Part shown: in pieces, positions 174 through 3,100 of the stretch | How positions within the stretch are numbered: position 1 is the stretch's first letter | How the letters are laid out: every line of letters begins with the position of its first letter | Source of the DNA: Chthonomonadales bacterium | GTDB taxonomy: Bacteria > Armatimonadota > Chthonomonadetes > Chthonomonadales > Chthonomonadaceae | Reading direction: 5' to 3' | NCBI GenBank assembly: GCA_038217285.1 | Contig: JBBQPO010000172.1 | Location: 1 to 13,177 of the forward strand | Length of the DNA: 13,177 nt | Made by a program: the position numbers and the translations under genes | Notes under the pieces: model-generated | Databases searched by the model: none | Told to the model about the DNA's origin: nothing | The model's input: only the letters and a program-made list of their open reading frames with translations

Positions 174-3100
174 CTACTCTTCGTCGCCCTCGGTGAGGCT
201 CAGTTTGCCCAGTAGCGCGTCCAGACCGGCGAGGCCGCTGCCGGGATCGTCGTCCGCTTCGGGAGCGCCCGGAGTCTCGACCGCCAGTTCCTCTACCATC
301 TGGAATCCGTCCAGCGGCAGGGGATTTGGGCGAGTCGCTGTCCGTCCACCCGTGAGCAGCGCGATCTCTTCCTCGTCCTCTTCGATATCCAGCGGCTTGC
401 GCGTATCTTCTCGCTTCATCGGCTCGACGATCAGCGGCATGCCGTCCGGCGTCGCGATTTCGAGGCTGCGATACGAGGGCAGCCCTGTTCCCGCCGGGAT
501 CAGGCGGCCGATGATGACGTTCTCCTTCAGGCCGACCAGTTCGTCCTTCTTGCCACGCACTGCGGCCTCCGTCAGAACGCGGGTCGTCTTCTGGAACGAA
601 GCCGCCGACAGGAAGCTCTCCGTCGCTAGCGACGCCTCGGTGATTCCCAGCAGAATCCAGTCGGCGGTGCCTTCCTGCCCATTGATCTTGCGGACGCGGG
701 TGTTCTCGTCTTCGAAGACGAACTTGTCCACGACCTGACCCGGCAGGAACCGACTGTCGCCGGGATGGCGTACTTTGCGCTTCCGCAGCATCTGCCGCAC
801 GATCACCTCGACGTGCTTGTCGTTGATGTCCTGCCCGACGCTCTTGTAGACGGCCTGCACCTCGCGGACCAGATACTCCTGCACACCGCGTGTACCCTGA
901 AGCTCCAGCACCTTCTGGGGGTCCAGCGGTCCGCCTGTCAGACGGTCGCCCGGAGAGACCTCCTGGTTGACCTCGACCTCCAGATCGCCGCGATAAGGAA
1001 CCATGTACACTTTGCGGAGTGTCACTTCTTTGATTCCCATCAGCACGATCCGCTTCAGCGCCTTGTCGGTCAGCGCCTCACCAGCCTTCACGATCACTTC
1101 GCCGTCGGAGTCCAGGATCTCTTCGCCGGAGCTCGCATCCGTGCCCAGTCCCTGATGCGCCAGCGCTTCATTCAGCTCCTGGCGCACGTTGATGACCACG
1201 TTGCGCAGACCCTTGTTCTCGATGGCCGAGACATGGCCCGCATGCTCCGTGACGATCGCCTGGCCCTTGGGCTTTCGCGCCTCGAACAGCTCCACGACCC
1301 GCAGCAGGCCGCCGACCTGATCTTCGAGCACCTTCAGCACCGCCTGGATCGAGCGGACGCGTTCGCGCTCCGAACCCTCCGCCTCTTCCAGCTTCACGAC
1401 TCCGGTCTGGATATCGTTGTGAAGCTCGCGCAGGTTGTTCTGTCGTTTCTGCTTGACATTGGCGACGCCTGTCAGGTAGGTACCCGCGACGCCTCCGGTG
1501 TGGAAGGTACGCATCGTCAACTGCGTTCCCGGCTCTCCGATGGACTGCGCCGCGATGATGCCCGTCGCCACGCCGATGTCCACCAGTCGTCCGGTCGCCA
1601 GGTCGCGTCCGTAGCACTTCGCGCAGACGCCCTGGCGCAGCTCGCAGGTCAGCACCGAGCGCAACTGCACCGTGATCGAGGTAGTGATGTCGTACATGTG
1701 CGTCGCCGCCGCCCGCTTGCGCAACAGGTTCGCACGTCGCACGCCACGGGTCAGCAGCGCCTCGGTCTCCGCGACCGTGAAGACGTCGCCTTTCTGCTTG
1801 ACCACTTCGCCGGTATCGACATCGATGAGGTCGTCCGTCGCCACGCGGAATTCGTCCAGCTCACGGGAGAGCGGATCGAGAATATCCATCGAGGCCGGCA
1901 CGATCACTTCACCTGTGATGGGGTTCACGATATCGACGCTGGGATACCGTCCCTTCACGCGCTCACCAATCTTCTCCAGCACATCGCCGCCATCCTGGAT
2001 CTCGCGCACCGTGATGCCGTGGGTCGTGCCGCAGTCTACGGCCCGAACGATCACGTCCTGCGCGACATCCACAAGACGCCGCGTCAGGTAGCCGGCGTCT
2101 GCGGTGCGCAGCGCAGTGTCGGCCATACCTTTGCGGGCTCCGTGGGTGGAGACGAAGAACTCCAGCACGTTCAGACCTTCGTGGAAGTTCGACTTGATCG
2201 GCAGGTCTTCAATCAGGTTGCCGAATGGGTCGGACATCAGTCCACGCATACCCGAGAGCTGCGACAACTGCTTTTTGGAACCACGAGCGCCGGAGTCGGT
2301 GACGATATAGAGAGGGTTGTACTGATCGATACGCTCCATGATGGAGTTTGCGATCTTGTCACTCGCCTGCATCCAGGTCGTCAGGACCTTCTGCTTACGT
2401 TCCGCCTGCGTCAGCATCCCCCGGTTGTACTGGGAGTTGGCCTTGCGGACATCGTCTTCTGCGCCCTTGATCAGGGTGTCGCGGTCGGGCGGGCTGTCCA
2501 TGTCGGTCATGGCGATCGTGATGCCGCCCTTCATCGCGTACTTGAACCCGATCGACTTGATGTCGTCGAGGAAGGTGATACAGGCCTCTTTGCCGTGCGT
2601 CTCGTAGACGTCCGTAACGACCTGCGACACGCCCTTTTTGACGAGCGTCTTCAACAGGTACGGATCGGTGTACTTGATGTGCGGCGGCAGGATCTCGTTG
2701 AAGATCAGGCGGCCTACCGTCGTGAAGTTGGTGGTATCCACGACGCCGTTCTTCATGGGAACCAGATCGTTGCCATCCGCATCGTGGTGTCGCTTCAGCC
2801 CGATCACCTCGATGGTCGTCTCCGCATCCGGCGCGAAGCTGGCGCGGTGAGGCAGACGAACGCTGATCGGCTCATGCAGCTCCAGCATATCCATGTCGTA
2901 GGCCAGAACCGCCTCTTCCGGCGATGCGAACACATATTCCCGTGGGCGCTCTCCGGCCTTCAGCTCCTTCATCATCGTCAGGTAGTAAGACCCCAGGATG
3001 ATGTCCTGAATCGGCGCGACAATCGGTCCGCCGTGCGCCGGCGAGAACAGGTTGTGCGACGACAGCATCAGGATCCGGGCTTCCGCCTGCGCGTACGCCG

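Follow-up and report, generated by a model that had tools for sequence, protein, structure and literature searches.

The rpoC locus and the trigger-loop insert

All cellular RNA polymerases have a mobile catalytic element, the trigger loop. We analysed a stretch of 13,177 nucleotides from a Chthonomonadales bacterium of the phylum Armatimonadota (assembly GCA_038217285.1, contig JBBQPO010000172.1, positions 1 to 13,177; the whole stretch is referred to as the window), in which rpoC, the gene for the RNA polymerase beta' subunit, encodes a trigger loop that carries an insert. The frame of rpoC is open across 1581 codons, and its product matches the five Rpb1 domains of Pfam in order and above the cut-offs (PF04997, PF00623, PF04983, PF05000 and PF04998; E-values from 1e-76 to 5e-13). 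The catalytic motifs of beta' are present, with NADFDGDQM at residue 592 and TMRTFH, which contains the M-R-x-x-H of the trigger loop, at residues 1135-1140. Residue numbers are those of P0001, i.e. the rpoC open reading frame (ORF) translated from the TTG at 4919; the true start is probably the ATG at 4863-4865 (M19), where the consensus of the homologues begins. The named nearest homologues of this protein belong to Chthonomonadaceae, Chthonomonas calidirosea and Armatimonadota, and the beta' subunit of Chthonomonas calidirosea (P0055) also carries the insert.

The insert consists of 53 residues (TYLTG...KVLE, residues 1147-1199, window 1323-1481) and lies between the loop tip, which ends at residue 1146, and the hinge motif DQVGGLLR. 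An earlier note on this DNA had given these limits, together with the Leu codon in the hinge (Table 1), and re-reading the translation reproduced them exactly. Windgassen et al. (2014, PMC4227799) divide the trigger loop into TH1b, hinge 1, TH1a, loop, TH2a, hinge 2 and TH2b, and we have named the segments (TH1a, hinge 2, TH2b etc.) after them. The same paper locates SI3, the large insertion of the Escherichia coli enzyme, between the loop and TH2a. Comparison of our sequence with this description places the insert at the SI3 site, i.e. after TH1a and the trigger-loop tip and before TH2a, as the earlier note had proposed. The insert is bounded by TFHTGG on one side and by the xGLLRV-ELFEAR base helix on the other. 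The description in the note of a hinge rewritten from GGLPR to GGLLR needs one correction: GLLR is confirmed, but the first Gly of the GG pair varies among relatives (G, S, R, N, H, Q or K, the commonest residue reaching a frequency of only 0.35). The motif is better written xGLLR: across the 71 insert-bearing rows of the alignment G1204 and R1207 are invariant and L1206 reaches 0.96.

Table 1. Genes and trigger-loop segments in the window, with residue numbers of beta' where they apply.
Feature	Residues	Window	Strand	Remarks
rpoC (RNA polymerase beta')		174-4919	minus	ORF printed from TTG; Pfam Rpb1 domains 1-5
rpoB (beta subunit)		5067-9182	minus	upstream of rpoC, same orientation; assigned by reading the translation
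Trigger-loop N arm: hinge 1 + TH1a	1128-1146	1482-1538	minus	catalytic M1136, R1137, H1140; conservation 0.83-1.0
Insert N-terminal linker TYLTG	1147-1151	1467-1481	minus	Gly-containing; G1151 conserved at 0.89; pLDDT < 50
Insert helix 1	1152-1172	1404-1466	minus	DSSP helix in model; conserved basic stretch V-K-x-K-R/K-Q
Hairpin tip loop	1173-1183	1371-1403	minus	non-helical in both models; most variable part; conservation 0.58
Insert helix 2	1184-1199	1323-1370	minus	DSSP helix in both models; conservation 0.79
Hinge 2, DQVGGLLR	1200-1207	1299-1322	minus	Leu (CTG, 1302-1304) replacing the usual Pro; non-helical in models
Trigger-helix base TH2b	1208-1218	1266-1298	minus	conservation 0.76-1.0; model helix begins at 1208

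Predicted structure of the insert

We used AlphaFold2 to model residues 900-1440 of beta' (541 residues) from an alignment of 107 rows, which gave a mean predicted local distance difference test score (pLDDT) of 87.2. According to DSSP the insert in this model contains a helix at 1152-1172, an 11-residue loop and a second helix at 1184-1199, with no strand. Averaged over blocks of ten residues, pLDDT within the insert was 83-89 from model residue 261 onwards and 63 for block 251-260, while the stretch T1141-G1151 (GGVAG plus the first five residues of the insert; model residues 242-252) fell below 50. No helix was predicted in the hinge at 1200-1207, where the block mean was ~69. A second model, of an isolated 95-residue loop, also predicted two helices (1155-1171 and 1184-1199), no strand and a non-helical hinge. 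When the 541-residue model was compared with solved structures, only beta' chains were found (best Z 28-31, root-mean-square deviation 2.4-7.4 Å, 313-364 of 541 residues aligned); this resemblance validates the frame of the model and leaves the insert itself uninformed.

On the basis of these models the insert is probably a two-helix antiparallel hairpin, whose helices have ~21 and 16 residues and are connected by a loop of 11. The earlier note had described it as a two-helix element unrelated to the sandwich-barrel hybrid motif (SBHM) domains that make up SI3, and this agrees both with the absence of strand from the two models and with its length, since 53 residues are too few for two SBHM domains. 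It is very improbable that the insert is instead the decayed remnant of an SBHM domain or of SI3: it does occupy the same site, and Armatimonadetes are reported to carry Gracilicutes-type insertions in beta (PMC11515920), but neither model contains a strand, the insert is shorter than a single SBHM, and Pfam assigns only the five Rpb1 domains to the protein. No relation of the insert to SI3 was seen in the sequence or among the Pfam matches, no profile comparison having been made.

Distribution within Armatimonadota

In all 120 of the closest homologues obtained by a word-indexed search the trigger loop is of mid-length and ends in GLLR (119 of these loops were parsed by script and one, P0093, was read by eye). 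The same insert, identical or nearly so, is present in independent assemblies. These observations, together with the open frame of rpoC, refute the idea that an error of sequencing or assembly produced the Leu codon, a possibility raised in the earlier note, or the insert.

Within the order, a 72-residue query spanning the insert matched 38 of 41 genomes; across the phylum, it matched 281 of the 401 genomes sampled. Four families account for 73 of the 120 unmatched genomes, and we label them f11 (47 genomes), f16 (18), f10 (4) and f18 (4); many of the other 47 belong to families that have matching members. For each of the four families we read the beta' of one or two genomes (one for f10, two for f18). 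Every beta' read from the four families has a divergent insert at the same site, with 75 residues between the His and the hinge Arg in f16 (hinge SLPR), 74 in f10 (GLLR), 67 in f18 (GIHR or GVHR) and 127 in f11 (GIVR). Queries specific to a family then matched in 60 of 61 f11 genomes and in 18 of 18 f16 genomes. An insert at this site is present across the phylum, in every family examined, and the hinge Pro is replaced by Leu in most of Armatimonadota.

Several sequences depart from the common pattern. In f16 genomes (cf. L010) the base helix is degenerate (DLFMAT vs ELFEAR), and in f11 genomes (cf. L014) the insert is much longer than that of the window. In some relatives (P0080, P0127, P0129 and P0139) the tip loop is extended by 13-30 residues, partly of low complexity, which gives loops of 80-93 residues; expansion is tolerated at the tip while both helices are conserved. 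In two long-read assemblies labelled Armatimonadetes (L061 and L062) the rpoC frame is broken inside the insert region, probably by assembly indels.

Because the sequence TGVANV...DIQTG resembles TGGVAG...DITxG, we also asked whether the insert arose as a duplicate of the loop tip. This was rejected: when the insert was aligned locally with 12 canonical short loops and with its own flanks, 5-52% of shuffles scored as high.

Comparison outside the phylum

We ran a HMMER scan with the 541-residue fragment, which extends from the bridge helix to the jaw, against 1.84 billion representatives. It listed 150 proteins (representatives at 50% identity), and the loop could be parsed in 128 of them, the other 22 being fragments or variants missed by the pattern. 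In the best 19 representatives the loop is 61-125 residues long and the hinge Pro is missing (16 GLLR, 1 GLVR and 2 GIVR), and only these 19 of the 150 have such a loop. The remaining parsed representatives have either short loops of 15-18 residues (n = 48; 46 GLPR, 1 GLHR and 1 GLTR) or long loops, of the E. coli type, of more than 140 residues (n = 61; 57 GLPR, 3 GLPK and 1 GLMK). Pro is therefore kept in 106 of the 109 parsed representatives that lack a mid-length loop, which bears out the earlier statement that this residue is nearly invariant elsewhere; the long loops in particular keep it, whereas the Armatimonadota insert mostly occurs without it.

A scan with the single insert sequence, using one genome per species, gave 47 confirmed loci, of which 45 are rpoC genes with the insert and the two weakest are not rpoC. 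By their titles 43 of the 45 come from Armatimonadota-type taxa (including Chthonomonadaceae/-ales, Capsulimonadaceae, Armatimonadales, Armatimonadota and Abditibacteriota), one is titled 'bacterium' and one 'Dehalococcoidia'. This last locus (L026) lies on a 3.5-kb contig, is 87% identical over the insert and has flanks near-identical to those of the window; judged by its sequence, it is probably a mis-binned Chthonomonadales contig. A scan of this kind reaches close relatives only, and more distant homologues of the insert may exist beyond the phylum.

Three proteins that are not of Armatimonadota type (P0170, P0261 and P0234) have trigger-loop inserts of 158, 447 and 627 residues which by eye are largely helical or low in beta-repeat, and which keep GLPR. 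Other lineages may also have non-SBHM inserts at this site.

We searched the literature on RNA polymerase or RpoC signatures of Armatimonadetes, on helical insertions and on trigger-loop insertions (2019 onward) and found no description of the insert. A 2024 survey of insertions in beta and beta' (PMC11515920) covers Armatimonadetes, and in the portion of its text searched a helical trigger-loop insert is not mentioned. The outcomes that the earlier note had listed as damaging to its proposal, i.e. an SBHM fold, a sequence error or an existing account of the insert as a characterised lineage-specific insertion, were none of them found.

Conservation and selection

The mean frequency of the commonest residue, calculated over the 71 insert-bearing rows, was 0.716 for the insert and 0.726 for the whole catalytic fragment. 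Two other lineage-variable parts of the protein gave lower values, 0.58 in the variable domain that follows the bridge helix and 0.595 in the jaw region. Many charged positions of the insert exceed 0.9, and the conserved charged or polar positions on its two helices include K1156 (0.93), D1169 (0.94), R1185 (0.90), Q1192 (0.93), K1196 (0.93) and E1199 (0.97). Between the insert of the window and those of 13 relatives, the proportion of non-synonymous differences (pN) was 0-0.26 and that of synonymous differences (pS) 0.25-0.82, with pN far below pS in 12 of the 13 pairs (e.g. 0.054 vs 0.62); in the thirteenth, with the near-identical L018, pN was 0.

Conservation equal to that of the catalytic fragment, combined with pN far below pS, leads us to conclude from the sequences that the insert is under purifying selection and is not merely tolerated. 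This bears directly on the alternative that the insert is functionally neutral, an expansion which a permissive surface loop tolerated and which was fixed early in the history of the phylum. Such an expansion would suit the range of lengths that the trigger-loop tip accepts (inserts of 15 to ~750 residues among the 128 parsed representatives) and the variable length of the hairpin tip, which is reflected in the range of loop lengths among the 19 best representatives. However, a neutral loop would not be expected to be conserved as strongly as the catalytic fragment, and more strongly than other variable parts of beta', nor to show so low a pN, and the insert has been retained in every family examined; we consider a neutral expansion unlikely.

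Comparison with known trigger-loop insertions

According to the 2021 preprint by Bao & Landick, the known trigger-loop insertions are all made of SBHM repeats. E. coli SI3 (beta'In6/beta'i6) shares its insertion point with the hairpin, which would be expected likewise to move with folding of the loop, but it has 188 residues arranged in two SBHM beta-sandwich domains and is 3.5 times larger than the insert. SI3 inhibits folding of the trigger loop and aids pausing (PMC4227799); upon folding it exchanges its contacts with the jaw for contacts with the rim helices, and E. coli lacking SI3 is viable only when the trigger loop carries a suppressor substitution (PMC11077087). The cyanobacterial Si3 is found at the same site (PMC10895346, PMC11515920) and differs still more from the insert, as it is a beta-rich structure of 645 residues with nested SBHM/HABAS domains, ~12 times larger, which makes an arch with sigma (PMC10120043), while the insert is predicted to be helical and has 53 residues. 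The non-virion polymerases of jumbo phages have also been described as having trigger-loop insertions with a fold unlike that of E. coli SI3 (phiKZ gp74, residues 396-533; AR9 gp154, residues 400-508). These domains are viral, have 109-138 residues and lie beside the downstream DNA.

The closest parallel for the hinge is an engineered one. The Gly and Pro residues of the hinges destabilise the trigger helices, and in the E. coli 6Ala mutant, in which these residues are replaced by Ala, the folded state is stabilised, nucleotide addition is moderately slower and hairpin-stabilised pausing is largely abolished (PMC4227799). Helix breakers have been removed both in 6Ala and in hinge 2 of Armatimonadota; however, in 6Ala both hinges are altered and there is no added hairpin, whereas in Armatimonadota the replacement affects only the Pro, often along with the first Gly, and G1204 is invariant. 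Given its predicted fold, the insert is best read as a lineage-specific trigger-loop insertion of non-SBHM type that is accompanied by an altered hinge.

Proposed role of the hairpin and hinge

We assign a probability of about 0.6 to the interpretation that an Armatimonadota-specific helical hairpin at the SI3 site rides on the trigger loop and is co-adapted with the hinge to tune elongation and pausing. By analogy with SI3, the hairpin would be carried by the trigger loop, tethered by the flexible Gly-rich linker on its N-terminal side and by hinge 2 on its C-terminal side. It would project to the surface of the enzyme near the jaw and rim helices and would shift whenever the loop folds into the trigger helices, so that contacts between its conserved charged faces and the rest of the enzyme could set the balance between open and closed loop. 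Because hinge Gly and Pro residues destabilise the trigger helices (PMC4227799), a Leu in place of Pro, often combined with the absence of the first hinge Gly, would rid hinge 2 of helix breakers and should make trigger helix 2 fold more readily. We propose that the insert and hinge are probably co-adapted, tuning elongation rate and pausing, because a stiffer, Pro-less hinge would favour folding while the surfaces of the hairpin set the loop balance. The suppressor substitution required by E. coli lacking SI3 (PMC11077087) offers a precedent for such co-adaptation.

Several points weigh against this interpretation. The isolated loop model is poor (mean pLDDT only 59), the alignment covering the insert draws its depth from one phylum only, and the hydrophobic moments of the helices taken singly were reached by 19% (helix 1) and 18.5% (helix 2) of shuffles. 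All six f16 genomes read have an insert and retain SLPR, and across families the insert and the loss of Pro are separable (Pro in f16, H in f18 and V at the hinge in f11), which weakens strict co-adaptation. Finally, everything proposed for the function of the hairpin is inferred.

A more far-reaching version of the mechanism seems doubtful to us, while deserving some consideration. In the closed state helix 2, the Pro-less hinge 2 and TH2b might fuse into one helix of ~30 residues, making the hairpin a rigid lever and a permanent nucleus for folding. In the sequence a hydrophobic spacing of 3-4 residues (V1188, I1191, L1195, L1198, V1202, L1205, V1209 and F1212) continues through the hinge, and the hydrophobic moment of residues 1184-1214, i.e. 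helix 2, hinge and TH2b treated as a single helix, was reached by 4.5% of shuffles. Both are consistent with a continuous helix in the closed state; the models predict none, and as both break the helix at the hinge they do not support the suggestion of the earlier note that helix 2 could run on into trigger helix 2. The 4.5% figure weakly favours its description of the helices as amphipathic, which the figures for the single helices do not bear out. If the continuous helix were real, Armatimonadota would have a polymerase that is hinge-stabilised by nature, its trigger loop at no time unfolding completely, and it would elongate and pause in ways unlike the E. coli, Thermus and Bacillus enzymes. 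Small helical tip inserts combined with loss of the hinge Pro may also make up a second class of trigger-loop modules that is recurrent and has gone unrecognised (cf. the helical-looking P0170 and P0261).

The hairpin might alternatively serve mainly as a docking site for a protein of the secondary channel or cleft (Gre-family or DksA-type) or for sigma, rather than tuning the folding of the loop. The high conservation of charged positions on both helices would be compatible with this, the genome encodes two genes with a Gre-type N domain and one with a DksA/TraR-type zinc finger (contigs C38, C180 and C58), and the arch between cyanobacterial SI3 and sigma (PMC10120043) provides a precedent. 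However, control searches showed that Gre and DksA factors are found in most bacteria, with or without an insert. We regard docking as the main role of the hairpin as improbable, and note that docking and the tuning of loop folding are compatible with one another.

Other features of the window

Upstream of rpoB (window 9273-13156) lie genes for a DUF2092-like/redoxin fusion, a PF10091 glucoamylase-like protein and an FG-GAP/ASPIC protein, and not rplJ-rplL. Within beta' itself, inspection by eye showed an acidic C-terminal tail of ~100 residues (window 174-480) and, in the N-terminal third (window ~3900-4450), a charged, helical-looking stretch of ~200 residues.

Significance

Knowledge of trigger-loop insertions rests on E. 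coli and cyanobacteria, whose insertions are large SBHM domains. The predicted hairpin described here is a minimal and tractable natural variant through which to ask how an appendage and the stiffness of the hinge set elongation rate, pausing and proofreading, and family f16, which has an insert and keeps the Pro, offers a built-in natural comparison. The insert also provides a clean molecular signature of Armatimonadota.

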